DNA of 63,735 nucleotides, the filler included, from Reticulomyxa filosa (Eukaryota; Protista; Foraminifera): the NCBI GenBank assembly GCA_000512085.1. It is 15 parts of 15 records of this genome, joined end to end, with 100 filler letters (N's around TTAATTAATTAA, not from the genome) between each part and the next. Parts side by side here need not be neighbours in the genome. Positions count along the whole stretch, not along the records: positions 58,916 to 61,436 come from ASPP01019862.1; 14 more parts are not named here. One strand, given 5' to 3'. This document shows, piece after piece, positions 8,810 to 63,733 of the stretch; the first letter of the stretch is position 1, and every line of letters starts with the position of its first letter. Under the pieces are notes generated by a model. That model was not told the DNA's origin, searched no databases, and worked only from the letters and a program-made list of their open reading frames with translations. Made by a program: the position numbers and the translations under genes.

Positions 8810-11800
8810 TTAGAAAGGCAGCCTTGCCCAAAATTTAATAACCTGTTTTGGTTTTACTAGTTTTTTATCATGTTTTTTCGATTCTTCATATGCACATTTA
8901 TATGCAGTAGCACAATGTTTCCATGTGAACAAATAGTGTGGAAACTGTTTTAATTGTATATCAGGAAGATATTTTTTCAATAAATGACTAAATTGTAAGC
9001 CTTCGTTTCCTGATGTGTTTCGTTTAGTTTGTCCTTGTTCATAAGCTATTTTACGCCACACGTTTAATATGCTCTTTGTGGTACCCAATGATGTCCTATT
9101 AACAAATTCTTTGACCTCTGTTTCAATTTCATTGGTCAAAGGTTGTTGATATATGTCAAGAACAAATGAAGCAATTGAATTTTCATCCAACTGCTCCGAT
9201 TGAACTGAAGTTTTTAATTGTTTCCACAATGCTCCAATATGTTTGACAAAGAGTTTACTGGTTTTATGGTTGGCATCATTTAATTTATCAAATATAATCC
9301 AATCTTTTTTTTCAAATTTCAAGTCTTTAAACAACTCTGTCAATTCTTTATCTATATTAACTTCGTCGATATTTCGAAATAAGTGAACAATAGCATCATT
9401 TACCATTTCCAATGCTCTCTGCTTTTGCAAAGGATACAAAGTGGAAAAACGTAAGCTGTTCCAAAATGATTGAAATTGAGCATCTTTGAGAGCTTCATAT
9501 TTGTTTTCAATGGCTGTAATGCAATTGGGAATGTCAAATTCATTGCGATATTCAAATAAAGGGATAATAAAAGTGATTTGTTGACGACCATGAACAAAAG
9601 TGTGATAGATATCACTTTCAATAGCAGCTAAGTTGAAATATTTGGATATATCAGATTGACCATAATCCAATACTGGAGTACTTCGTCGTTGAATGATTGC
9701 ATTTAACGTTTCTGGATTAAAACATAAAATATCGCGATCTGTGATATCAAACACGCTTTTCCAATTGCGTTGCTCATTATTATTTGAATTTTGTTCTTCT
9801 TTCTTTTCTTCAATAATCTGAATATGTGGATGTTTAGATTGCGCAAACTCTTTCAAAAATTCATTTTGTTGATGTTCCAAATGTCGAATTATTTGATAAA
9901 TACTGAATTGTGAATCATTTACATTGGAATTGGTGATGCATACTTGATCAATAGGTAGATCTTTAAAATCGCGTTGAAATTGTGGACAATTCGATCCAAA
10001 ATAATTCCAATATTTCACAAAATAATTCTTTGAACATTCATACAAATGTTTGAGCATTTGATCTTCTTGAATTTTATGCAATTCATCTGGCATCAATTGT
10101 CGAGAGTATTTGTTGTGAACATATTGGATCAAGCGTACAATATTTGGTAGATATTGCAGATACCAGATACACTCATCCCAATTCGATAGTTGAGCAGTGA
10201 GTGAATAACTATTAGCCAGAGATGGATTTGCAGTAAACACATGGAATAAATCTCTCCATGACAAAGGCTCAACTTTTAAAAATAATTGTGGGAGATGCTC
10301 TATCTTATAACACTTATCTAATTCTTTGATTTCCTCAATTTCACTCATCAATTCTAACCACTTTTTCTTCTTGTCATCATCTGATATAATTTCACTCTTG
10401 TTCCGGAGTTTAATGAACTCGGCTTTGCAATTAAAAAATGTTGAATACTCTTTGTCCAACTTTTCTTCAAATTCACAAATTACTTGCAAATCATTGTTTG
10501 GCAATCCTTTAGGATACCATTCTTTAAATTTTTCAAAAAAGTTTTTAATCCATAGATGAATGGCAATGCATAGCAGCTCTTCACTCAATTTTGTCAGTAC
10601 TTTTAATTTTTCAAAAAGAATCTTAATCTTTCTCCATAAATACTTAGATGAATTCTCTTGATTAGTTTGTCCTATCAATTGCTGAATTTTCTTAGTATCT
10701 TGTGGGATACTTTCATTTCGTAAAAATAATAACAAATGGTGCAACAATTGCAACAATGTGGGTATTAAAGGTTTCAATTTACTCGATTTGCATTGAAGAG
10801 ATGTCATATATCTCTTAAAATAACAGAGCCAGCTCTCTTTCATATCTATTTCTGTTGTATCATTTTGTTGGATTGGCTGTTTGAGAATTGTCTTGACAAT
10901 GGAAGCTCCACGACCATTCATTTGACATTTCACTTGTTTCAGAAGGTCGTCTGACTCGTCGATTGAAAGTGCATTATTGTTCAAACAACCATGCACTATT
11001 AAAGGCTCATTCGAGGTAGTTGATGTAGGCAAACATGATTCGGAGTCGGCCAATAGCAATTGAAATGGATTGCTTTTCATAAATGGAAGAATGGACAGAA
11101 AATGGAAACCTAATGTTGCCACAATTATATCAACTGTATCTCTGATAGGTAATTCACTTTTGAAATCGCTCCAATAAGTGAAGACTTGCCAAAAGATTTT
11201 TTGTTTTGTGATTCCCAATAAGTCATGACGTAGAATATATTTATGCAATCCTGTCATTTTTTTTTAACTAGCAAAATTGCAAAGAAAAATACATAAATTT
11301 AAGAGAGAAAAAAGACTCAAAAGCTAAAACACAAAGAAATTGACTTTGTATTTGATCGGTGGCGTTGTAGTTATCATGGAAACGGATTAATATTAGTGAT
11401 TCTGCAAGCATTTGGGGAGAAAAGAGCGTATCCAATGAGTGATTGTCTAACATATCTGCAAACTTATCATTCATAATTTCCAGTATATATTCCATAAAAG
11501 CACTATCTCCATACACTCCGATGAAAGGATTGAACGAAATATTACGCAATGTCCTTTTACACAATGAATTAAATATAGTACTTGTCTTTAATTCCTTCAA
11601 AAAAGGAAATTGTGTTCCAGCACTTGGGTGAGCGAATATGATTTCAATCCAATGCATTCCTTTCCTTGCGTACAGTTGTTTCAAAAACCATACATATAAA
11701 GCATGTTCATACTGTTTATAGAAACTACTGAAATTTGACAATGATTCACTTATATTTTCCAATAATCTGAATATACTTTGATTTTCTTTGAGTTGTGAGA

Positions 11801-14800
11801 GATCAAAATTCTCATTAACCATCACGGAAATAAGGTTGGTAACATCCACTTTCACTTTTGAAATTTTCGCAACTGAGCCAAGACTGGTGGTATTTTTTTC
11901 ATTACATAACTGACTCCAAGTGTTGTTATCCTTCTTTATCTCTTCGTTCAAGGTTATCAACTCGAAACAACGATTCAACAGCACTGCTTCCTCAGAATGC
12001 AAGGTAAGGCTGTTGTTTAACTTTGTATGCAACACTATTTCTTTATATATTTGCATTTTGAAAATGGGTCCATTGTCGATCTGTGAATACAATTTCCGCA
12101 AAATGGACGTATATACTTTATTCTTCTCTACATTCTCCACACGTTTGATTGCGGCAAGTAAGTCTAGAATGAAATCAGCATATTTTTCCTGGGATGTATT
12201 TCGGTTTTCGCGATAGTCTTTGAGGACAGAATCGACTAGTTCTTCATGTTCCAAAAAGCCATGCTTAATTATTTTTTGTTCTTCAATTGCAAATCCGTCT
12301 ATTCTCAAATATATGATACCAAGGCGACGAATTTCAATTTTTCGTGCACTTTGTAGTAGCTCATTCATAAGACTTTCACTCTTTACTAGCATGCATTGGG
12401 ATAAGAAATTTAAAAAATTGTGATAAAGCATTGCGCTCTCGTTTATGTCAAAGTTTGCTCTTATTGGGATCTCCTTCCAAAGAATCTGGACCGTTTCCAT
12501 AAGCCATGATTCGGGATCTGGAACATGTTTCACACGTATTTTATCCGAAGAGACAGAGATTAGATATGCGTAATGGAAAATTATTTGACGAAAATAATGT
12601 ATGGTCACTTCAATGGTGGCAATCGACAATTTGCCACATAATAGTAATGCCATAGACACAATGATATTTTGTAGAATAATTTGTTGATTTTGCGTATGCA
12701 AATGCGATGAAAATTTATATCGAACCAAGTCCATCACATATTTATGGATTACCTTCAGAGAATAGTCCATATCCCATTGTGTTAAATCATCATTTCCCAT
12801 TGACATTTCTTCCAACTTTGTCGCAACTGAACCAAGATGATCGTTTGGCGACTTGGGACATTCCAAGAGTTTTTGTTGACACCAATTATGAATAGAACGA
12901 CTGAATGGAAAAGAATGCTGCACATATGTTTGAATTGAATACAATTGAGGGTCAATTACAGCTGAAAGCAGGTAATTGGAGTCAATACTCACTGGCTTCA
13001 TTTCAACTAATTCTTCATTTCTCAATGCCTTTTCAAAAAATTGGACATACCATGGCAACTCATCATTTTTTTTGCTTTCGACGTATTTCTTTGAATTATT
13101 TGTAATATGTGCTATTAAGTGTAAATGGTGACAGTAAATAAAACAAATAAAACACAAATAGCAAAACTGCAAAACCACCATTTTGATAAATGGCAGATAA
13201 CACATTGACAAAAGCCAAAGTTACCAAAGTATCAACGGTATTGTGATACTCTACGAAATAAGAACCTTTTCTTTTTTTCATTCCATTTTCCTCTAGATCA
13301 CGCAAAATAGTCATAACGGATTTATGCTTTGTGGCGTTGAACAAGAGTCCTTTTAGTCGATACTTGAGGATTTCTTCACCATCCTTGAAATCAAACACTA
13401 ATGGCAATAGCTTTTTTTCTTCCAACGGATTAATGGAACGTGGAAAATGTAGCCTTCCAAAAGCTTTCTGTGCACACTCGAGTAAATGCTACAAAAAAAA
13501 AAAGTGTAAATATCTATCATTTATTTAAAGAAAATACGAAAAAGCAATACTTCACCTGTTTGGATTGTTTTTCAGCAACATCATTCACTGAGAGTTTCAA
13601 ATCATTTTTTAATGATATTGTGTTTGTTGACAGTAAGTAATCGACATAGACAATCTTCCACTTCCTATTTTTTTTTTAAAGAAAAAGAGACTGCCTTTTA
13701 TTTTTTAGTAAAAAAAAAAGGGGTTTGTTTTTCTAAACTGTCGGAATATTAAAGGAAATGATAATTCTTTGTTGGATTTTCCATTTAATTCTTTGATAGA
13801 TTTTTTGCTGGATTCTCTGCTGGAATGAATAAGTAAAATAACTAATTTTTGTTTTTGACTGTTATTTGAATCATTATAAAACTGATAATGTTCAAGTTGG
13901 AGAATATGAATGATTTGCTCCAATTGATTTTTACTTTTGGGTGTATAACGACATTGCAAGATCAATACATCATTCCGTAGTTCATTTTGAAAAACGCTTT
14001 GATCGTCTTTTCAAATTGCTCTACTTTTTTGAATGATCGAATTTTTTGAGTGCAGTGAACCCGTTCCATTGGAATATTATATTCCATGTCGTTTGTGAGT
14101 ATCATCACCATTTGATCTTTAGATTTCTTTTGCTGGATCTTTATGATATCTTCCTTTTTTATTTTAATTTTATTTGTATTCACAAGAGATAAGTTATATC
14201 TCAAATTAAAAAAAAAAATTATCTCTGTTTACCAAGCAATAAAATTTTATATCTTTATCGGTCTGTATATTCGTCATTATTTCTGGTCGATACAATGGTT
14301 TGAATAGATTGAGTAATTTCGTTTCCAATTCTTTTTCGTCAAATCGGACAGTGTCTAAATTTGTTGTTTGTGGTGACTCTTTTTTTCATCATTTTGATAT
14401 TCATTTGCTTCCTTTGCTTTTCGAACAGCCAAATAAAGTAATGCTGAATAAAGGGTATCCTGACAATATCCACAAAACACGTCAGATAGATTGCTCGATT
14501 TGGATTTATTTAACAACATTTTTTCCATGGATTCAATACACGATTCCATGTTACTTGGCAATGAATTGCGATATGAAATGAGCTGTTTCTCAAAACGACT
14601 GAGAAATGCAAGCTATGTGTTATTTCACATGTGTACATTTATATCCCATACATGTCATACTTATCTAAAAAAAAAGTTAACTGGCATATTTGGACTGTGG
14701 GCATCCTCTTTCTGAACAACGACAACACATTTGAAATTTTCATGAACATAACAATCTCTACTTTCAGTTCCCAATGCCACTCGACAATACACATTCCCTA

Positions 14801-15811
14801 TTTATTTTGAAATAATTTTATAATGCGTATATATTTACATTAAAAAAATAAAATAAAAATACCTGAAGGTCTTCTTTGATATCTTTGATTCAACATATCA
14901 TACAAACTTTCATAAATACTTTCCAAATTGTGCAAAATGACAGTTTTACCAATATTCATACAATCAATAATTTTGTTCAATTGATTATAACTGGTAATAT
15001 TCGAATACATATCTTGAGGAAAATAACTTCCAAATAAAAATACTTGATTGTAATTCAAAATATCGTATTCCAAAAGTAATTGCCAAGAATAATATTTTTC
15101 ACTGATTACCATACAATGTCGACTCACCATCAAACCATTTGATGACTGATCACATTCCATTAAATTTCTTTCCACACACATGACAGGAGTCCATTTCTTT
15201 AATTCTAGCAAAATTTCCTCTTTTGTTTTACCTAACACTTCCACTAAAATCTTCTGCAGCTGTTCATTGTAATTGGTACTGTCAACTCCACCAAAGTTAC
15301 GAAGGTACCCTTCTAATGGTTGCTTGTCAAAAAATTCAGAAAGAGTGGCTTGATATTTGATCAATGCATAAAAATCACGTGCTCCAAAGAAATCACTATT
15401 TCCATTGGGTTTAAATGCATTCGTTTGATCTTTTATTATTTTTTCATATGCCATTATTATTTTTGTAATTGCCTGTTCTGAAAATGTGGGTTCGAGAATT
15501 ACTTTTGCTGTTTCCATCAGGTCATTGTGGTCCATTAAAGGAATGAAATGCATAATCATTCGATTCATTTTGGCAGCATCCAAAGACCAATTCGAAATGC
15601 CAACAAATGCAATTTTGGGATGTTCCAATAATTGATGCAATATTTTCAAAGGATTGTGTGGTGATTGTTCTGCCAAACCAATCTCATCAAATAAAAATAA
15701 TGTGGTAGTGGTTTTGTCATTGGAATATCTTTCAGTCTGATCCCATAATTCTTTGATAGCACTTGGCTTGCAACTTCTTGTACCTTGGAATGAAATGCAT
15801 TGCAATGGTTT
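8810..15811 (-). CDS. RNF213: RNF213/mysterin-like giant AAA+ ATPase / E3-module protein, 5'-partial, multi-exon
   Basis: RNF213 AAA motifs FLFDEIGLAEQSPHNPLKILHQLLE, AFVGISNWSLDAAKMNR, FFGARDFYALIK, LFGSYFPQD, LHNLESIYESLYDMLNQRY, YCRVALGT..CYVHENFKCVVV and FLSRFEKQ. Also an E3-core-like WFLKQLYARKG and a CTD-like YFNLAAIE..FVHGRQQI. Confidence 0.9.
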
Positions 15812-17839: not shown

Positions 17840-19683
17840 TTATTGACGATTTTGTTCAGAGTGGCTGTCGCAGCTTTCGCATTTAACGCCTTTAATGCTT
17901 GTGAAAGCTTGAATCCATTCATCTCGATCATTGATGGTAGCACATTTGAATTCCCATCTTCTGTCTGGCATGTCAACAGTCATTTCAAAATTTCCAACTT
18001 TTTTGACAATTTTTGCTTGGTTCAAATCGATTTTATTTTTGGTGAGATTTTTGCCTTCTCCTTTTACATAAAAAAGGGACCCGTCACTCCACAAAATGAA
18101 CTTTCGACGTTGGTTCTGGCTGAAAAAGTGTTCTCCAGCTTTTTCCAGCCACCCTTCTTTCAGAATGTGCACCGTATTATTGGCACAATGGTCAATGACT
18201 TCGAATTCGTCGTCCTTTTCTTTGGATAGTTGCGCTTCGAGTGCCTTTGCTTTTTCTCTTTCTTTTTCCAGTTGCTGTTTCAAGCGCTCTTGAAACGCGG
18301 CCGTGCTTTTTCCAAGGATCAATAAGACAAACAGATCGTTGACAATTTCCTCCAAATCACGAATAGTGGCGACACGTGCATTATTAAATTTAGTGGCGAG
18401 CACTGGCTCCATGATACCAATTGCCAACACAACAAATGCCCTTTCGCAAGCATGTTCCACCCATAAATGCCATTGTCTCTGATGTTGCTTTTCTGCTCCC
18501 ACGCGTTGCTTTTCATCCGTCTCTTCCAGATCAGGATTGTCGGCAAAGATTTCCAAAGAGAACACCTTCAACGAAAACACTTTTGCAAATGTCATTCGAT
18601 TTTGCGACAGTTTGCTTTCAAACGACGCGACGTTGTGAAATAGTTGTCTTAATTCCACTTCTTTGCAAATGTTTGCAAAGTAGTCGTTCAATTTTGTCAA
18701 CGCCTTTGTTTTTGGAAAGTCGTGCAAAAACGTGGAGTTTGGTTGTGCCAATTCAGTGATGGCAGCTTCGACGGAATGTTTCAACTCCTCGTTCATATCC
18801 GCATACGAGGACACGGTCTGGCAATCATTGAAAAAGCAGTCCACCTTGGTTATTATCAATTGGAACAACGTTCGATACGTTGCATTCTTTTTGATCTGTT
18901 GCGCAATCCTCCAATGCAAATCGCATTCGTCAATGTCGAATTGGCTCATCACTTCCTCGACACTCAGCGTCTTTGTCACCACGATATTGTCGTCGCTTTC
19001 TTTCCTTTCCGTCGTTTGCTCCTTTTGACTTTCCGCCGTTTGCTCCTTTTGATTTTCTTGTCGAATCTTTTCGAGTGCGTTTTCTAATTCTTGAATTTTC
19101 TCTTGAAACTCTTGTTTTTCTTTGTTCTATATACACATATGTATATACATATGTATACGTAAATATGATATATTAATACATCATATGCATCCCATTTAAG
19201 TATATACTCTCTCACTCTCTCTCTAAATCGACTCAAATAAATAAATAAATAAAAATACTCTCAACTGTTTCAGCTTCAATTTTTTGCAATTGGAATGTCA
19301 GTGTTTCAATTTGCAAATTTTTCTCTCCCACAAGGGTCGTACTGGAGGATGCATGCTGTTGTATCTTAGCGTCGCAATCAACAACAGTCTGTTCAAGTTG
19401 TGAATATGTTTAGATACACCGAGTTCGCGCAGGAATTTGCACGTGCACAATGTATATGTTGTGTGTGTGTGTGTGTGTGTATGTGTATGAATTAAACTTT
19501 TTTCTCTGTCTCCAGAGATACTTGCAGCAATGCAATCGCTGCATCTCGCTCCAATATGTTTTGATTGAGTCCTTTCACTTTCTCGTCCAACGTTTGAATG
19601 CGTTCACTAAGAGATCGATTTTGGCGTTCCTTATTTTTGTCATTAAACATGTGAGAAATTTTGTATGCTATAAGAAATTATTT

Positions 19684-33576: not shown

Positions 33577-33851
33577 TGCTTTAATTTTCAGTCTTTTTTC
33601 TTAAAAGCTTCTTTGTCAACCACCAAAAGGTGCATTCCTACCGTAAAGTCCTAGCCGGTTGGTCTTGGGATTATTCTAGGGCATTGGCAAAACCGTTTTT
33701 GTGAAAATCTGCAAAGATCAAAAGTCTGTGTGAAGGAATATTTGTCATTTAAATGCTTTGTTTTTTAAAATGATAAATTTTCCAGAGTTGTTTGTCTTGT
33801 CAAAGGGCTTTAGAAAGGAGGAAAAAACTTGGATAAACACTCATTGAAGAC

Positions 33852-34316
33852 ATGTTGAAACGGGGTTATAAGTCAGAGCAATATCTCTTTCAAAAAGAAG
33901 AAGAAGAAGAAGAAGATCCCAAAAAAGGGAATGAAGATGCTGATGCTGACTTGCCTGTTTCTACCCTGCCAACTAGTGACGAGAGTAGCAAGACCGGTAA
34001 CCAAGCTTCTTTGTCAGTGCGTTTTGTAACGAAGATTGAAGACCCGTCATTGCATGTCGACGATTTACTGTACACATTGCCATCATCGCTTCGCCCGCAA
34101 AGTTTGGGTGAGGTCGTGAATCACCTATTGTTTGAAAAGACGAATGAAAAGAAGTTTGTGGCATTTGATTTTTTAATTACTGACATTATGTTGCGAGACT
34201 CGATATCTAATCATTTAACGAAGCATAACATTTCATCCGAAAAGACTGTCCTTATCGAATATATGGAGAAGATACCCGAGCCTAGTAAAGAATCTGCACA
34301 TCAACACCCGGATTGG
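33852..34316 (+). CDS. WDR12: Ribosome biogenesis protein WDR12/YTM1, N-terminal NLE/UBL domain (3'-partial)
   Basis: SVRFVTK..YTLPSSLR..LGEVVNHLL..FDFLITDIMLRDSI..ISSEKTVLIEY..HPDWV matches the YTM1 NLE domain and the start of WD1. Confidence 0.9.
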
Positions 34317-34436
34317 GTATTTTTTTTTTTTTTTTANNNNNNNNNNNNNNNNNNNNNNNNNNNNNNNNNNNNNNNNNNNNTTAATTAATTAANNNNNNNN
34401 NNNNNNNNNNNNNNNNNNNNNNNNNNNNNNNNNNNN

Positions 34437-35344
34437 TTGGAGAAGTGCAGCGCAAACAGGCTACGGCTTGGCAGCGTCAGCCGCAGGCGGTGCGCGACCT
34501 CGTCCACCATCAGACTGGTGTGGTTCAGCAGCACGCGCTGGATCGCCATGCGGCTGTACGCCAGTGTGGCCAATAGCCATAACACGCCCAGCATGCCGCT
34601 AAGGAAGCCATCGATGACCCGCATGCTGCCCGGGCCGAAGTGCCCGTTGACCCAAGCAGGCAAATCGATGGCGTTGCCGGCGTACCAGATCAGCCCGCCC
34701 AGCCCGCCAAAGCCGACACCGTACAGCACGGCCACAAACAGGCTGCCGAAACCGGCCAGGTACAGTTTGCGCACGCACGGTTCGATAGCAAGCCGCGCTT
34801 GCCCAAGCCGGCTGTGCGGCAGCAAGTAGCGTTGCTTTTGCAGCGTGGCCAGCGGCCACAGCAGGCCCAGCGACAGCAGCAGCGTGAGCCAGGATTTGAA
34901 AAAAGTGCGGTAGGCGGCACCTGTCTGGCCGTCAAAATGCAGCCGCATGCCACTCCAGCTGGTATTGGCCAGCCGGAAGCGCATGGCTTGCACTGCCAGC
35001 CATGGGGCCAGCGCGGCCGCCCCCGCGCCGAGCAGACCTTGCAGCACGGGGGAGAACTCGGCAGAGAGCTGCCACAGCACAAACAAGCCCACCATCAGTG
35101 CCCGGCCTTTCAGGATGGCGATCGGGCTGGCGTGGTAATCAAAGCGGCCGCCGGCGACTTTGGTGTGGCCGTACAGGTATTTGAGGGTACGTACTTTGGC
35201 CCACGCCGAATAAATGCCCAGCGTCAGCACGCTGAGCACCAGGTTGCTCAGCCACAGCCGGGCGTAGCCGCCGGTGGTGGCGCTGAACGCAAACGGCAGA
35301 CGGTGTGGAATCAGGATGTTGCTGTTGGCCTCAGGCTGGCTCAT
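34437..35344 (-). CDS. yjgN: Bacterial YjgN/DUF898 inner-membrane protein (3'-partial)
   Basis: YARLWLSNLVLSVLTLGIYSAWAKVRTLKYLYGHT..FDYHASP..ILKGR..RFRLANTSWSGMRLHFDG. GC-rich and intronless. Confidence 0.93.
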
Positions 35345-35420
35345 GGCGGTTACCGGGCAGAAACTCAAGCGTGCAAGTATGCCACGGTAATTTGACGCGA
35401 TAAAACTTGCTGTTGTACGC

Positions 35421-35534
35421 GGCTGGCGTCACACTTCGCGCTGCGTGCCGCGGGGTGCGCCAGCCTCAAACCGTCGGCTGTACAGATGGACGGTAATCGC
35501 CGTGGCGTCACCACGGCGTGCTCTTTTCGGGAGC
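35421..35534 (+). promoter_or_regulatory. Structured 5' leader of the agmatinase gene: four hairpins, the last covering the Shine-Dalgarno site
   Basis: Inverted repeats at 35421-35465, 35470-35494, 35498-35518 and 35520-35534. GGGAG at 35529-35533 lies 5 nt before the ATG at 35539. Confidence 0.4.
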
Positions 35535-35538
35535 GAAC

Positions 35539-35717
35539 ATGTCTGACGATCAAATCCGCGGTGACGGTGCCATCCGTCGTCAAAGCCTGTACGGCTCTTC
35601 CATCGAAAACCCTACGCCGGCGTGCTGTCGTTCATGCGCCGCAACTACACGCGCAATCTGGAAGGCGTGGACGTGGTGGTATCCGGCATTCCGCTGGACC
35701 TGTCCGTGACTTTCCGC
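35539..35717 (+). CDS. speB: Bacterial agmatinase / ureohydrolase N-terminus (1-nt frameshift near 35610, 3'-partial)
   Basis: MSDDQIRGDGAIRRQSLYGSSIEN / YAGVLSFMRRNYTRNLEGVDVVVSGIPLDLSVTFR is typical of proteobacterial agmatinases. Confidence 0.85.
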
Positions 35718-35848
35718 NNNNNNNNNNNNNNNNNNNNNNNNNNNNNNNNNNNNNNNNNNNNTTAATTAATTAANNNNNNNNNNNNNNNNNNNNNNNNNNN
35801 NNNNNNNNNNNNNNNNNGGAAAAAAAAACAAAAATGAAAACACCAAGA

Positions 35849-37231
35849 TCACATTTGAAGCAAGTGGGTTTTTTTGTCATCGTCTCTCGTTCCACGGAAG
35901 CTGATGCTACTTTTTCGCTGTGAAGACGACTCTGTGTCATCCCAATTGGGGTCATCATACGCTTCTTGCAAATGTTTATATCCAGAATGACTGAGATTAG
36001 CAGATACAGAGATAATAGTCCCATTTTCAAAGCTAATTTGAGCACTACGACAATCGGAACAATCCCAAAAGCGTCGATAAAAAAACGAAACCAAGGCACA
36101 GCACAATAATGTAACTATGCAACCCCACGCTTCTCTCATTACATTATCGTCATATCGATCATTGCTTTGTGCGGTCGATATGTTAAAATACATTATGATA
36201 TCAGTTGGTAGTATTGTCGCAAAAAATAAGGACTGGATCGAAAAAAATTTGCCATGAGGATTATAGGGATTCAATACATTTATCGTTGCACGCATCAACA
36301 CAAATAAGCCATAAATGCAAACAGTCGCACTTATCGTATTACACCTTTTTCATTTAATATGTATACATGTACATATATACGTTATATTATTGTTGAGATT
36401 TGCTAACCGATGTTCCCAAAAAAGAGAAAAAAAAACGGATTCTCGCAACAACATAGCTCACCCCCCCTTTTTTTTTTCCTCTCCTCCCATCCTTCTTTAC
36501 CTCTCAAATACAAACATACCAATTGGCCCAATGATAATCTTCATTGTCTCCTCTCGTATCTCTCAAAAGAATAATAAAAGACCACAAGGGGGCTGTGACG
36601 CAATATTGTACAATCAGTGTGTACATCACCAAAAAAGCGGTTTCATCCATGTATTTTGCTTCCTCCAACCTGCGACAACAACAAGCCAGTGGAAATGATG
36701 TCCAATACTTGGTCTGGCCTACCTTTTTTTTTTTTTTTTTGTTTTGTTTGTTTTGAAGTGTCCCCTTTCTCAAAATAGATAAAATGTAATTATGTATTTA
36801 TTTACTCATTTACCCTTCTTCAAGGATTCCAAAAAAGCTCCTTTCCTGTGTCCGCCCATTAACATGGTCAAAAATTGAGTAAACAAGTAAATGGTGTACA
36901 CCTCGTAACATGCCGAAATAAAGTTGAATGAAAACATAAATGATGGCCACAACAATGTCGCCATTTTGCATGTTGATAATACCACCGGGTAAGCACAGAT
37001 TTGAAAACCTGTGTGAAAAGCTCTTGCTATAAACATATCCTTGCTACGGTCTCGAAACACGAGTCCGTCGTTTCGCAACTGGCGCATTTGTGGCAGCACT
37101 AACGCTAGTACTGTCACCCAACATAGCCCGCCTATGCCCCAAAACCAGTAGTATATTGTTGGAGCGTTTCCTTCGATAACGTGATACTTGAAGTCTGGGG
37201 GCAGGCTTGGACAAGCTTTCGTATGGGTCAT
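35849..37231 (-). CDS. Organic solute transporter alpha / TMEM184-like membrane protein, about 3 exons
   Basis: ICAYPVVLSTC..LWP..FNFISACYEVYTIYLF..LMGG, FPLACCCR..IVQYCVTAPL and HGKFFSIQ, with multiple transmembrane segments. Confidence 0.75.
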
Positions 37232-57900: not shown

Positions 57901-58982
57901 ATCTTGTGTTGTTTCGATATTGCATCTTGGAGGCAACGTCAAATTCTTAAGCACGAAATATCAATGACCTGGGACACTTGTTCGACTTGAAGATAAAAGT
58001 ATTAAAACGTTAATACTTGTTTCATCTTGTACGAACCTGCCAATGGTAAGTAAACAACAACTTGATATTTCGGGTCATTCTCGATGCAATTAAAGTTCTA
58101 TTACGTCCATAACTTTATTGATAGAGTGTGGACGGACATACATCTGGAATAATCTTTGAAATTGCTGTTAATTATACCACATTTGTCCAAGGAGTTAGTT
58201 ATATATATTCCCGTACAACTTTGTTTGATATGCGCACAGATCAATTTTTGGATCGATGTTGTCGTCACTGGTGGTCCGTGATTTTTTTTTTAATCCATGT
58301 TGGTCACAAAGAAAATCTTGTATGTTCATATCGTTCGTGTGGGAGGTATCATATGAAAAATGGTTATATATGGCGAATGTATTGCAGTGGATGTTCAAGA
58401 AGTTAATAATGCAATTGATCAATGGGCAAAACATAACCAACGATGTCATCATTTTATATCTGCGTCAATCCAGCCGATGTTTCATTTTCTTCCACTTTAT
58501 CACAAACATCGACACCTGTAATGTGTTAGTGCAGAAATACACATGCGCTGCAATTCATTATGCAGTAGTTTCAAAATACAAATAATTTGCTTTCAATGTC
58601 TTCTCATTGCCAAACTTCGATTTCTATAATATTCAACCACACCATATTCACACATACATTTTTTTAAACAAACACACACAAAGAGAAAAACTTACTCAAT
58701 CAATGTTGTTATCCCGCGCAGGATACAATCACTTTTCAAATTTAAAAAAAATAATAAAAAATTAACATTTATAATATAATTTTTTTCATTTATTAATTTT
58801 TTTCTTTTTCTTTCTNNNNNNNNNNNNNNNNNNNNNNNNNNNNNNNNNNNNNNNNNNNNTTAATTAATTAANNNNNNNNNNNNNNNNNNNNNNNNNNNNN
58901 NNNNNNNNNNNNNNNACACAAACATGTGTATACGTATACGTATACGTATATATTTATTTCTTTTTTTTTTTAAAAAAAAAAG

Positions 58983-61419
58983 GTAATGTCGAATTTTGGA
59001 GCGAGGCGACAACGACATTGCGTGTGAGTGATGGTGTGTTGATCGTAGTGGATTGTGTGCAAGGTATACGCATGCAAACAGAGACCTTGTTGCGACAAGC
59101 AATTTCCGAAAGAGTTCGTCCCGTTTTGTTTTTGAATAAGTTGGACTGCGTATTTTCTGAGTTGCATTCATCTTTGGAAGACTGCTATCAAATCTGTGCC
59201 AATATCATTGAGGCTGTAAATGTGATTTGTCAAACGTATGAAGATCAAAATTTGGGAAACATTGAAGTTTGATATACATGTACATACATAGATATATACG
59301 TATATCTATGTGTATATATATAAAGGTCCAAAAAAAAAATGGACATGGTAAGGTCTTGCCACACACTGAGCGCGTTGCATTTGGAAGTGGACTTCAGGGA
59401 TGGGGATTCACATTGCGTGATTTTTCTCGATTATATGCATCAAAGTTTGGTTTGCCCACTAAAAAGATGTTGAACATGTTGTGGGGTGATCACTATTGGG
59501 ACCCACTTGCAAAAAAGTGGGTCACTCAAAATTCTGGTATGTATACATCATATTTTCGTTTAATGAACAAAAAAAAAAAAATGTAATTATTAATAAATTT
59601 TTTTTTTTTAAAAAAAAAAAAAAGAGGGCAAATTGATGAGAGGATTTTGTCAGTTTGTGTTGCATCCAATTCGAACGTTGTATGACTCGATAATGGCTGG
59701 GAAGAAAGACCAATTTATGCCGATAGTGAATGCGTTGCGATTGCCATTGAAGCAGAAGGAAATGGATATTGAAAAAAACTGGCTCCAAGATCCAAAGAAA
59801 TTAATGAAAAAGATAATGTGTGTATGGATACCAGCCAATGGTACCTTGTTAGATATGATGGTAAGGCAGCTGCCATCTCCATTGGAGGCACAGCATTACC
59901 GTGTGACCAACTTGTACAGTGGCCCTTTGGACACTCTCGAAGCAGCTGCCGTGGCAAAGTGCGATGCGAGTGGACCCATGTCAGTATACGTTGCCAAAAT
60001 GGTACCTTTTGGACAAAGGCGTTATGCATTTGGTCGAGTGTTTAGTGGGACAATCAAAGAAAGTGAAAACGTTCGAATTTTGGGACCAGATTACGAACAC
60101 AATACAAAACGAGATTTATATGTGAAGAAAGTTGGGAGCATCGGTTGGATCGGAGCGAGAGGATATACGTACAAACCAGAGTCAATCCATGACTGCCCAG
60201 CTGGGAATTTATGTACAATTTTAGACTTGGATAATTTTATGTTGCATTCAGGGACGTTGACTGATAGTGATGAATTTTATCCATTCCGAAATACTTCCTA
60301 TTCAACCGCAAGAGCTGCCGTCGTGCAAGTGGCCATTGACTCCAAATCCCCGGCGGATTTGCCTCGTCTCGTGCAAGGATTGAAACGATTGAGCCAGTTG
60401 GAACCCTCTGCAAGGGTATACGTAGATACATCCGGACAGCATGTACTTTCCAGTGCAGGGGAGTTGCATTTGGATTGCTGCCTGAAGATATTGCGTGAGG
60501 ATTACACGATGAAATTAGTGGATATACACGTAACGGAGCCTCTTGTGCTATCTGTAGAGACCATTACAACGCGCACTGGAACTGACTCCATTTTTCCCAA
60601 GACATGCTTGGCAAAGGCTCCAAACAAGTGCAATCGCTTGTTCATGTGGGCGACTCCTTTGACGAGGTGTTTGTGAAAGGCATTGAAACAGAGGATATCC
60701 GAACTGAAGAAATTACGAATATGAAAGTATTTGCTCGTGATTTGGAAGATAAATATTTGTGGAATGTTGGAGAGGCTCGGAAAGTTTGGACATTTGGATG
60801 CCCTCCGGATGGAATTGCCAACGTACTTGTTGATCTTACCAAAGGGGTACAATACGTACACGAAATCAGAGATAGTGTCACTGCAGGTTTCATGCATGCT
60901 ACCAGGTCTGGTGTTTTGTGTGACAATCCTCTTCGTGGTGTTCGCTTCAATTTGGAAAGTGTCACGCTTCATTCCGATGCGATCCATCGCGGTGCAGGGC
61001 AAATTATACCTTGCGCTAAACGTGTATGCTATGCTTGCCAATTGGCCAGTGGACCGAGACTTATGGAGCCAGTGTATTTGGTGGAGATCGTTGCTCCTCC
61101 AGATGTGCAAGGAGGAGTGATCAATACCTTGCACAGCAGACGTGCAGAAATCGAACAGATCCAAGAACGTCCAGGGACAAAATTACTTGTTGTGCAAGCA
61201 CAGTTGCCCGTTATGGAGTCATTTGGATTCACTACTTTGTTGAGCCAAAGCACTGGCGGAAAAGCAGTCTTTCAAATGAAATTCAGTCAATGGAAACTAA
61301 TGCCTGGAAATCCAATGGAGGAAGGAACATATGCTTATCGTGTTTTACTGCAAACAAGAAAATGGAAAGGGCTGAAAGAAGAGTTGCCAGTATTTTCTGA
61401 TTACTGTGACAAACTATGA
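58983..61419 (+). CDS. EEF2: Divergent eukaryotic elongation factor 2 paralogue, 5'-partial, with introns and a 1-nt frameshift near 60660
   Basis: LRVSDGVLIVVDCV..QTETLLRQA..PVLFLNKLD, VAFGSGLQGWGFTL, LPSPLEAQHYRV, AFGRVFSG, AGELHL, VTLHSDAIHRG, PRLMEPVYLVEI and LPVMESFGFT. Confidence 0.93.
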
Positions 61420-61536
61420 ATTTGCATGTTTTTTTTNNNNNNNNNNNNNNNNNNNNNNNNNNNNNNNNNNNNNNNNNNNNTTAATTAATTAANNNNNNNN
61501 NNNNNNNNNNNNNNNNNNNNNNNNNNNNNNNNNNNN

Positions 61537-63733
61537 TTAATAATGCAACAAATAACAATTCCGTGTAGTGTTGGTGATCCAATTTGTTCAATCTCTCTGG
61601 TTCTTTTTCAAACACTTCTTGCAAAGTAGGTCCATGAATGGCTTCTGAACAAAGTACTGGAATTGTGCTACCATCAACACATTTCAAACATACCAATTCA
61701 CTATGATATGTTCCATGACCTATAATTCGATGATGAAATTGTTCTATCAAATAACTCATTCCTGGCATTTCAGGCCATGCTTTAGCATAAATTGTTGGTA
61801 AATTATCAGATTGTAATTTTATTGGAATCACATTCCTTTGCCCACTACTTATTTTATTATCTTTGAATTTTCCATTTTCGTTCAATAATTGAGCAGCTAC
61901 TCTATTTTTTAATGGTTTGCATCCACCAATCAACGGACTGTTAAATGTTGGCTCATTTCCTTTTGGCGCTCGATCTTCCACCAATTTTTCAAGTATTGTC
62001 TTCCATCTCTTTTTTTCTTCTTTCCAGAGAGTTGTTTCCCCACATCTGTCCGGAATACGATGTAATGTAGTCAAGACATCACTTAAAAACTTTTGAACAT
62101 CTTCTTCTTTATTTTTTTGATAAAACATTAAAATTTGACGGAATGCAACTCGGACATTCATTCCATCCAATGATTGATAAATACTTTGATATACTTTTAA
62201 TTCTCGATGTTTCATCACTAGTAAATCAATGAGCCGTGATAGACTTGATTTTTTATTTGTGACATCAATACCAAGTTCTCTTTCAGCTTTTTTTAGTAGA
62301 TCCATCCGTTGATTACGTACTCGCTCAAATGCAGGTCGTAATAATACAAATAATTGACATCGACGAATTGAACATTCGGCTGCAAATGCACCTCGACTTT
62401 GTTCTCCTCGATACCATTCAACAACTGACTCATCTGCATATTTATTTTGTTGCTTTTTTTCATCTTTCCATTGTTGTATCCTTTTGTTCCATTCAAAATG
62501 GTAAGCTTCCATCTCTTGTTGACATTTTATTAACCATGCTTCACGCAATTGAGAACGGTCAATAATATTACTCAAATTTGTTTTGCCATATGCCTCAAGT
62601 TCTGCTAGAAATGTGGTCTTTTCTTCAGGGACAACAAGTAAATCTCTACATATTTCTAATACTTCCAAACTCAAATCTGCTCGAATACAATTGACGGCCC
62701 AATTACGAACTAACGACTGATTCCAAATCTTCCACTGATTCATTTTACCCATTGTAAGAATGTATCGTTGATTTTGAGCATGAACTTCAAAATCTAAACC
62801 TTCTATGTCATGAGGATCCAGGCAATAACGAGTTCTATAACACCTAATTGCTTCATCCATTTCATTAAATCTGGCATGAACTAGCACTTGTCCAAATAAT
62901 TCGTTTCGATTAATCGTTGTGCTCTTTAAAAATAATGGATTTCCTTCCTGTTCACTCCATTGTTTTGCACTTTGATACAACGACCATACAGTTGAATACA
63001 TTTGTTTCAATTGTTGTTGTTCATTGGAATTAAGACGATAAGGTTGTATTTCTGAAGAAGGAACATGTGTATTTGGTTGATATAGCCATTCGTGTGACGA
63101 TTTATAATGCATTTGGGTCTGTATACGCCATTGCAATACTTGATGAATCAATTCACGCAAGAATGACACTGTATTGTCACAAACTGCTCTCATTCTCTTC
63201 AATTCATTCAGTTGGTCGATAATATGACCAATCTTAATTCCATGATATAAACTTAATGCTAATATAATTTGCTGAGGCAATCGATACAATTGGTCCTTCA
63301 CAGAAATTCCAATACGCTCTTTTTCAAATGTATCTGCTGCTTGTGACATTGGATTTAAAGACTCTGAAATTTGTTTGACAATTCCCAATGAAATATCTTC
63401 TCGTAATTGATGAGTTTTTAACCAACTTCCTAAATTTGTGTTTAAATATTGATTCAAAGACTCTTGATAAATGCGAAATAGTTCATCTGATCCAACTATC
63501 TTTCGATAACTCAATAAAATCTGACGATCAAATAATTCCCAAGTATTACTCCTTTGAATATTAACCAAGTTAATTGGTGTGTGAAGCAAAAGATCTGAAG
63601 TACGATGTGGTATACAAAAATGATCTGCACGTAATCCACTGCAAATAATTTGTGGTGATTCATTGCAATTGTCAAATAAATGCAATAACTCTTCAGGAGT
63701 CTCTCCTAATCCAATTAATGCGATTTCAAACAT
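61537..63733 (-). CDS. Intronless multidomain protein fragment: DUF294-type nucleotidyltransferase / helical substrate-binding region, TPR-like segment, and the start of an atypical (HipA/PI3K-like) kinase
   Basis: More than 730 aa open, partial at both ends. N-terminal FEIALIGLGET..LLLHTP..SVKDQLYRLPQQII..WRIQTQMHY. C-terminal GQRNV..IYAKAWPEMPGMSY..IGHGT..ELV..PVLCSEAIHGPTL. Confidence 0.6.

Follow-up and report, generated by a model that had tools for sequence, protein, structure and literature searches.

A divergent eEF2 duplicate of Reticulomyxa filosa with asparagine at the switch-II histidine position: a candidate GTPase-uncoupled elongation factor

Across all translational GTPases the histidine of switch II is described as conserved, and its loss as abolishing ribosome-stimulated GTP hydrolysis (PMC5084732). 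In yeast eEF2 this residue is His108, the equivalent of EF-Tu His84 (PMC4861600). For His91 of EF-G, the reported effects of replacement differ: no hydrolysis was reported for H91A in one study (PMC4718068), whereas in another the same mutant was only 7-fold slower and H91Q hydrolysed GTP at a near wild-type rate with a >20-fold defect in Pi release, all His91 mutants studied there being slow in Pi release (PMC4532990). EF-G(H91A)-GTP is reported to translocate slowly and then to remain stable on the ribosome, with the next cycle blocked (PMC4718068). A preliminary description of the locus presented here took the histidine of the PGH motif to be required for ribosome-stimulated hydrolysis. The loss of hydrolysis reported for H91A agrees with this, but the 7-fold slower H91A and the near wild-type H91Q make the wording slightly too strong.

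In the bacterial EF-G II subfamily, domains I-III diverge and domain IV is conserved, and members without ribosome-dependent GTPase activity have been reported (PMC3150367). EF-G II has also been described as relaxing G2/switch I, and PMC12775393 and PMC12172202 both refer to an EF-G paralogue whose translocation proceeds without hydrolysis. The archaeal paralogue aEF-2p is described as keeping G1-G5 and having lost the domain IV loops and the diphthamide histidine (PMC6143161, which is also the source of the diphthamide-loop motif definition used here). Among eukaryotes, EFL1/Ria1 and Snu114 are reported to stem from ancient, pre-LECA duplications (PMC4342817). The part that GTP hydrolysis plays during translocation remains under debate, and the literature examined reports GTPase-less translocases from bacteria only. 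A eukaryotic eEF2 paralogue lacking the histidine was not found in the titles and abstract beginnings searched, among which subscription journals were few; the supplements of PMC4342817 and PMC6143161 may list such copies.

This work describes an eEF2-like gene of Reticulomyxa filosa in which asparagine occupies the position of this histidine (the His-less copy). The window, i.e. the whole stretch of 63,735 nt that was analysed, is a chain of short contigs with N spacers between them, and neighbouring contigs give no context. The gene lies on contig ASPP01019862.1 (2,521 bp, window positions 58916-61436), pieces of which are annotated as RFI_22685 and ETO14682. Its three exons on the contig (Table 1) encode 754 residues that run from switch II to the C-terminus and comprise all eEF2 domains, with Pfam matches in the order GTP_EFTU, D2, EFG_III, EFG_IV and EFG_C. 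Missing from the contig are the 5' ~99 codons, among them those for the P-loop and switch I, and no upstream exon was found in the window with the N-terminal 110 residues of three eEF2s as query. Both the diphthamide loop HxDxxHRG and the stabilising Glu are retained. The predicted structure of exon C, taken as far as the frameshift and dependent on an alignment of canonical homologues, retains the barrel of domain II and the fold of domain III (mean pLDDT 78.9); confidence is low only at the fragment ends and at the two insertions.

Table 1. Features of the His-less eEF2 copy on contig ASPP01019862.1, in window positions
Feature	Position	Strand	Evidence or remark
Intron 3' end at contig start	58916..58982	+	T-run/A-run/AG acceptor; exons for P-loop and switch I off contig
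Exon A: end of Gly codon, switch II (PG-N), G4 motif	58983..59266	+	PF00009, E 1.7e-15
AAT (Asn) at catalytic switch-II His (yeast His108)	58985..58987	+	Alignment to yeast eEF2
G4 motif NKLD, intact	59135..59146	+	
Intron, 86 nt, GT-AG	59267..59352	+	Placed by alignment; annotation of canonical gene has extra residues here
Exon B: G5 region (GSGLQ; canonical GSGLH) and start of G-domain insertion	59353..59536	+	
Intron, 88 nt, GT-AG	59537..59624	+	Placed by alignment; extra residues at same position in canonical annotation
Exon C: remaining domain I, domains II-V	59625..61419	+	Stop TGA 61417-61419
Remodelled domain II loop, 4-residue insertion	60134..60172	+	Common to sister copy ETO32189
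Domain IV loop (canonical KSPNKHNRL)	60614..60640	+	Ser to Ala and His to Cys in His-less copy only; Lys kept
One-base frameshift in TTT run	60659-60660	+	Real or assembly error, both possible
Diphthamide loop HxDxxHRG, intact	60970..60993	+	Diphthamide His codon 60985-60987

Elsewhere in the window, the contig carrying 34437-35717 has a GC content of 0.50 (34001-36000) versus about 0.35 and holds an intronless gene for a bacterial DUF898 protein (Pfam E 7.5e-67); it is probably bacterial contamination in the assembly. The minus strand of 8810-15811 holds long ORFs of 817, 650 and 339 aa without a Pfam match, and the 339-aa piece contains an AAA+ Walker-B-like stretch that, as we presume, recalls RNF213/mysterin-like proteins. 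An intronless ORF of >730 codons, open at both contig ends, occupies the minus strand of 61537-63733 and has a weak DUF294_C match below the cut-off. Ordinary eukaryotic gene fragments are found at 429-983, 17843-19126, 33837-34334, 44247-46265, 47598-48008 and 50571-50963; their domains are ARM repeats, two PH domains, an NLE domain, ion-transport domains and a short-chain dehydrogenase. The ARM-repeat fragment is presumably importin-alpha-like.

The replacement of the switch-II histidine by asparagine, claimed in the preliminary description together with its codon and frame, was confirmed from the bases themselves. The acceptor AG occupies 58981-58982, followed by GT at 58983-58984 and AAT at 58985-58987, and exon A reads N-V-E-F-W-S-E-A-T-T-T-L-R-V-S-D. 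Since exon residue 2 aligns to residue 109 of yeast eEF2 (1n0u), the asparagine stands at the position of His108. The residue before it is presumably Gly, the first base of its codon lying in an exon off the contig. An acceptor that would restore PGH had been considered, and none was found: 58981-58982 is the only AG in 58916-58999, none is positioned for a split His codon, and use of the next AGs (59000, 59004) would remove switch II. The succession of T-run, A-run and AG at this acceptor has the same form as the end of the third intron of the contig. Four other gene-caller proteins begin with unrelated residues directly before G-H-V-D-F, as would fit an intron conserved within the Gly codon.

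The site was further compared in 349 proteins picked by similarity to the query, a set that is not a census, of which 226 aligned to the segment and 26 of those did not cover the site. Histidine is present in 190 of the 200 covering proteins. Among the ten others, one is the R. filosa gene, five have the appearance of intron read-through and four seem genuine. The histidine is replaced in P0254, P0325, P0331 and P0346, by Asn in P0254 (a Papaver protein) and by Ala once and Arg twice in the rest. The change to Asn is known from one of the divergent R. filosa copies; searches with exon A did not find the G domain of its sister, ETO32189.

The proposal that the gene is an eEF2 paralogue held. 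R. filosa also possesses a canonical eEF2 that reads DSPGHVDF, with the histidine intact; it lies on one 11-kb contig and is split as RFI_15703 and RFI_15702. This gene (P0002/P0173) is annotated as two owing to a frameshift and two mis-spliced or read-through introns; gene counts from the R. filosa assembly are therefore inflated. At 8 of 12 residues, the annotated tail of RFI_15703 agrees with the shifted frame of L001, the mRNA of a close relative. As the canonical eEF2, an essential gene, is thus also shifted in frame in this assembly, breaks of this kind can be errors of assembly.

A second divergent copy, ETO32189 (P0053), has 485 aa covering domains II-V. It is 77% identical to the His-less copy, with which it has 98 derived residues in common over 472 columns. 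Identity to the canonical R. filosa eEF2 is 63-65% for both divergent copies, and that canonical protein is itself 90-96% identical to close relatives. The second domain IV loop, SPxKHN, reads APNKCN in the His-less copy and is intact in the sister. ETO32189 is annotated simply as 'ef2' and shows His697 replaced by Tyr beside the diphthamide site and several radical changes in domain V; its 3.8-kb contig may carry an unannotated G domain.

Descent from eEF2 is indicated by match scores and by phylogeny. Exon A scored 92 bits against eEF2, 62 against EFL1 and 50 against Snu114, and the best PDB matches of exon A and of the later exons are eEF2, the later exons likewise scoring higher against eEF2 than against Snu114. 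In a quick maximum-likelihood tree of 38 rows, built without EFL1/Snu114 rows, the two divergent copies form a clade (SH-aLRT 100) inside a Reticulomyxa-like eEF2 clade (100); a phylogeny had been called for in the preliminary description. The stem has a length of 0.5 and the tips 0.2 and 0.14, compared to 0.02-0.09 for canonical rows. An identity as EFL1/Ria1 or Snu114 is rejected by the far higher scores to eEF2 and by the nesting inside foraminiferan eEF2. As to the timing of the duplication, shared derived states with the three closest canonical sequences number 2/15, 2/12 and 4/23. No orthologue outside R. filosa was found in protein similarity searches or in a metagenome pattern search, where 0 metagenome contigs matched a degenerate pattern of the domain II signature that the two copies share; as the pattern has to match exactly, it would miss variants. 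Judged by its sequence, the lineage is an eEF2 duplicate in Reticulomyxa, yet no bona fide eEF2. Ten further divergent proteins (P0207, P0038, P0217, P0024, P0013, P0058, P0003, P0006, P0009 and P0017) fall near foraminiferan eEF2 and have PGH wherever it is covered, and some of them alter the diphthamide loop. This suggests repeated eEF2 duplication in this protist group.

Losses of otherwise near-invariant residues are concentrated in particular parts of the protein. Within the G domain of the His-less copy, 13 of the 31 near-invariants from switch II onward (101-135, P0176 numbering) have changed, the histidine being one of them, versus 2 of 38 in the rest of the domain, which includes G4 and G5 (p 3e-4). 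On the stem shared by both divergent copies, 19/74 invariants changed in domains II and III and 0/41 in domain IV (p 1e-4). The invariant sites of domains II and III thereby changed at the same rate as the variable ones (32/103). In domain IV the untouched invariants contrast with changes at 21/125 other sites (p 0.002), which argues against plain gene conversion; as a cause of domain IV conservation it is disfavoured. The alterations lie in the QRxxLMMG loop of domain II, in the MKFSV linker and in the GAGELHLEI region, stretches that we take to face the ribosome and the switch regions. After the second duplication, the His-less copy lost Ser579, His583, Pro797, His803 and Arg828 of domains IV/V, and ETO32189 lost His697, Gly745, Arg754, Pro776 and Gly782 (P0176 numbering). 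The idea that the new residues of domains II/III became fixed and were maintained afterwards was discarded: for the remodelled domain II/III residues, tip changes after the split amount to 9/74 versus 16/74, and p rises from 0.006 to 0.19 once sites that changed differently in the two copies are counted.

The reading frame has been preserved over this divergence. The His-less copy has 0 stops in 754 codons and ETO32189 has 0 in 485, and several indels are in frame, while 262 of the 726 positions scored against P0176, a canonical relative, are different. L013 and L033 were dropped from the 32-sequence reference set because they contained stops. Neutral simulations gave a mean of 13-17 stops at 33% divergence and of 5-6 at 12%, the divergence of one tip; zero-stop runs were 0/600 in both cases. 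The 262 changes have a mean BLOSUM62 score of +0.23 compared to about -0.5 (sd 0.1) under neutrality, with +0.40 for the stem and +0.15 (se 0.27) for the tip of the His-less copy. They are graded by site conservation (23%/35%/47%), where the neutral expectation is flat. Against the canonical relative L001, dN is 0.27 and dS 1.6, giving a dN/dS of about 0.17 with dS near saturation and the canonical branch included; the figure rests on L001 (L002 and L027 left out) and is not branch-specific.

Because of the absence of stops, the conservative changes and this ratio, most of the divergence accrued under selection on the protein. An old neutral pseudogene is rejected by the 0 stops versus 13-17 expected, the dN/dS of 0.17 and the graded site loss. 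Canonical eEF2 is under far stronger constraint: of the near-invariant sites, 53/227 have changed in the His-less copy, versus 0/271 and 5/227 in canonical relatives. A pseudogene had been named beforehand as one outcome that would overturn the finding, with dN/dS as a check; neutral decay is not what was found, although the single frameshift is compatible with a recent death, and the His-less copy may have died recently. A present-day function of this copy is not supported, as the frameshift and the eroding domain IV/V residues at both tips would speak against it.

The reading that we prefer, with a probability of roughly 40%, is that this lineage-specific eEF2 duplicate represents a GTPase-uncoupled, ribosome-binding elongation factor. 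The sequence shows a duplication from eEF2 with a canonical copy alongside, the change of His to Asn in switch II, a G4/G5 core and a diphthamide loop that were kept, a selective loss of constraint in switch II and domains II-III, and a reading frame preserved over the long term. The protein is still predicted to bind GTP. It would bind the ribosome and reach the decoding centre via its intact domain IV, the conservation of which suggests that decoding-centre engagement persisted, and contact with the sarcin-ricin loop would lead to inefficient GTP hydrolysis. Since EF-G without the histidine otherwise jams the ribosome, an expressed His-less eEF2 would need weaker or altered ribosome contacts, and the domain II/III changes may loosen binding enough for release without hydrolysis. 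Its most likely use would be as a slow, condition-specific translocase or ribosome occupant, as for bacterial EF-G II/EF-G2, and the His-less copy itself may have begun decaying.

GTPase coupling is probably impaired in the His-less copy, because the whole surface of switch II, domain II and domain III has lost constraint. Two points temper this prediction: the almost normal hydrolysis by H91Q EF-G indicates that an amide may not abolish hydrolysis, and the loss of domain II/III contacts could equally mean zero ribosome binding. The earlier inference of a GTPase-impaired eEF2-like factor is thus retained as far as the coupling is concerned, and the particular roles suggested with it (hibernation, regulation or decoy) are not supported. 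We consider it unlikely that Reticulomyxa expresses a small family of cytosolic eEF2 paralogues which, naturally His-less but with the diphthamide tip intact and the surface of switch II, domain II and domain III re-tuned, moves or holds eukaryotic ribosomes without hydrolysis, as a eukaryotic counterpart of bacterial EF-G2.

A close rival to the preferred reading, though one we hold tentatively, is that the duplicate was redundant, evolved under relaxed selection and is now decaying or dead, with the frameshift being real and the loss of the histidine one of many tolerated changes. The one-base frameshift at 60659-60660 fits such a decay, as do the 53 changed near-invariant sites and the fact that each divergent copy has lost different invariants of domains IV/V. 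Papaver P0254, which has the same change of His to Asn, is degenerate and lacks 23/40 domain IV invariants; such a change therefore also arises in degenerate copies. Divergent eEF2 duplicates are moreover reported to be common in protists (PMC4342817). Decay accounts less well for the stop-free 754 and 485 codons, the in-frame indels, the conservative substitution spectrum and the non-random domain pattern, and the frame of the canonical gene is shifted in the same assembly as well, so that an assembly error is possible. An artefact at the codon itself, by which the protein would really have PGH and AAT would be a sequencing or splice-prediction error, is hardly credible. The codon does lie 70 bases from the contig end and beside a long A run, but six near-invariant neighbours within 15 codons have changed too, an error in the A run would shift the frame and not swap one base, there is no alternative AG, and the four proteins with unrelated residues before G-H-V-D-F fit the conserved Gly-codon intron.

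The two more specialised roles differ in what they demand of the ribosome-facing domains. A dedicated hibernation factor, locked in the GTP state on idle ribosomes and shielding the sarcin-ricin loop and the decoding centre in resting stages, would be in line with the retained domain IV, with the very stable binding reported for His-less EF-G (PMC4718068) and with the presence of eEF2-GDP on >95% of hibernating mammalian 80S ribosomes (PMC13541302). We nevertheless regard it as improbable, because canonical eEF2 already performs the hibernation role, eEF2-GDP being the principal such factor in mammals (PMC13541302), and a locking factor should retain the domain II/III invariants, 19/74 of which were lost on the stem. 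A decoy or off-ribosome binder would have dropped the ribosome-coupled GTPase and would present domain IV and the diphthamide His as bait; bacterial ADP-ribosylating enzymes are an example of proteins that recognise this surface. The untouched domain IV invariants of the stem (0/41), the relaxation of the regions for ribosome and GTPase coupling, the fast evolution and the re-duplication agree with a bait, yet a pure bait would have no need of the G4/G5 core, which was kept (2/38 lost), there is no sign of positive selection, and the sister changes His697 beside the diphthamide site. We therefore find a decoy quite improbable.

If the preferred reading of a GTPase-uncoupled factor is true, R. 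filosa would provide a natural eukaryotic eEF2 without the catalytic His and with domain IV intact, a probe of the role of hydrolysis on the 80S ribosome, and contacts that control release would be marked by the 19 invariant domain II/III sites substituted on the stem. If the gene is merely a duplicate in decay, it represents what gene duplication in protists ordinarily produces.

Compared with its parent, the canonical eEF2 (R. filosa; yeast Eft1/2, 1n0u), the His-less copy has the same five-domain order, apparently shared intron positions, the G4 motif and the diphthamide loop. It differs in the change of His to Asn, in its 53/227 altered near-invariants, most of which lie in switch II and domains II-III, and in a branch that is roughly tenfold or longer. 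EFL1/Ria1 and Snu114 resemble it as eukaryotic paralogues of the eEF2 family with new roles. The divergent proteins P0207, P0038, P0217, P0024 and P0036 have long branches and many lost invariants, as in the His-less copy; unlike it, they have PGH, and their losses in domain IV amount to 7-11 of about 41 residues. The plant protein P0254 has the same change of His to Asn, but is degenerate throughout. The archaeal aEF-2p (Asgard, Korarchaeota, Bathyarchaeota) is likewise an EF-2 paralogue beside a canonical copy and is the mirror image in its pattern, as the His-less copy keeps the diphthamide loop and has lost constraint in switch II. Bacterial EF-G II, including EF-G2 of M. smegmatis and EF-G2 of B. 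thetaiotaomicron, is again a second copy beside the canonical factor. The region seen changed here is switch II, the contig starting past switch I, whereas EF-G II has been described as relaxed at switch I, and the R. filosa case is independent, recent, eukaryotic and so far confined to one species. With domains I-III divergent and domain IV conserved, the His-less copy shows an EF-G II-like pattern, known here from sequence alone, and would be a factor that works like EF-G II and not a member of that subfamily.
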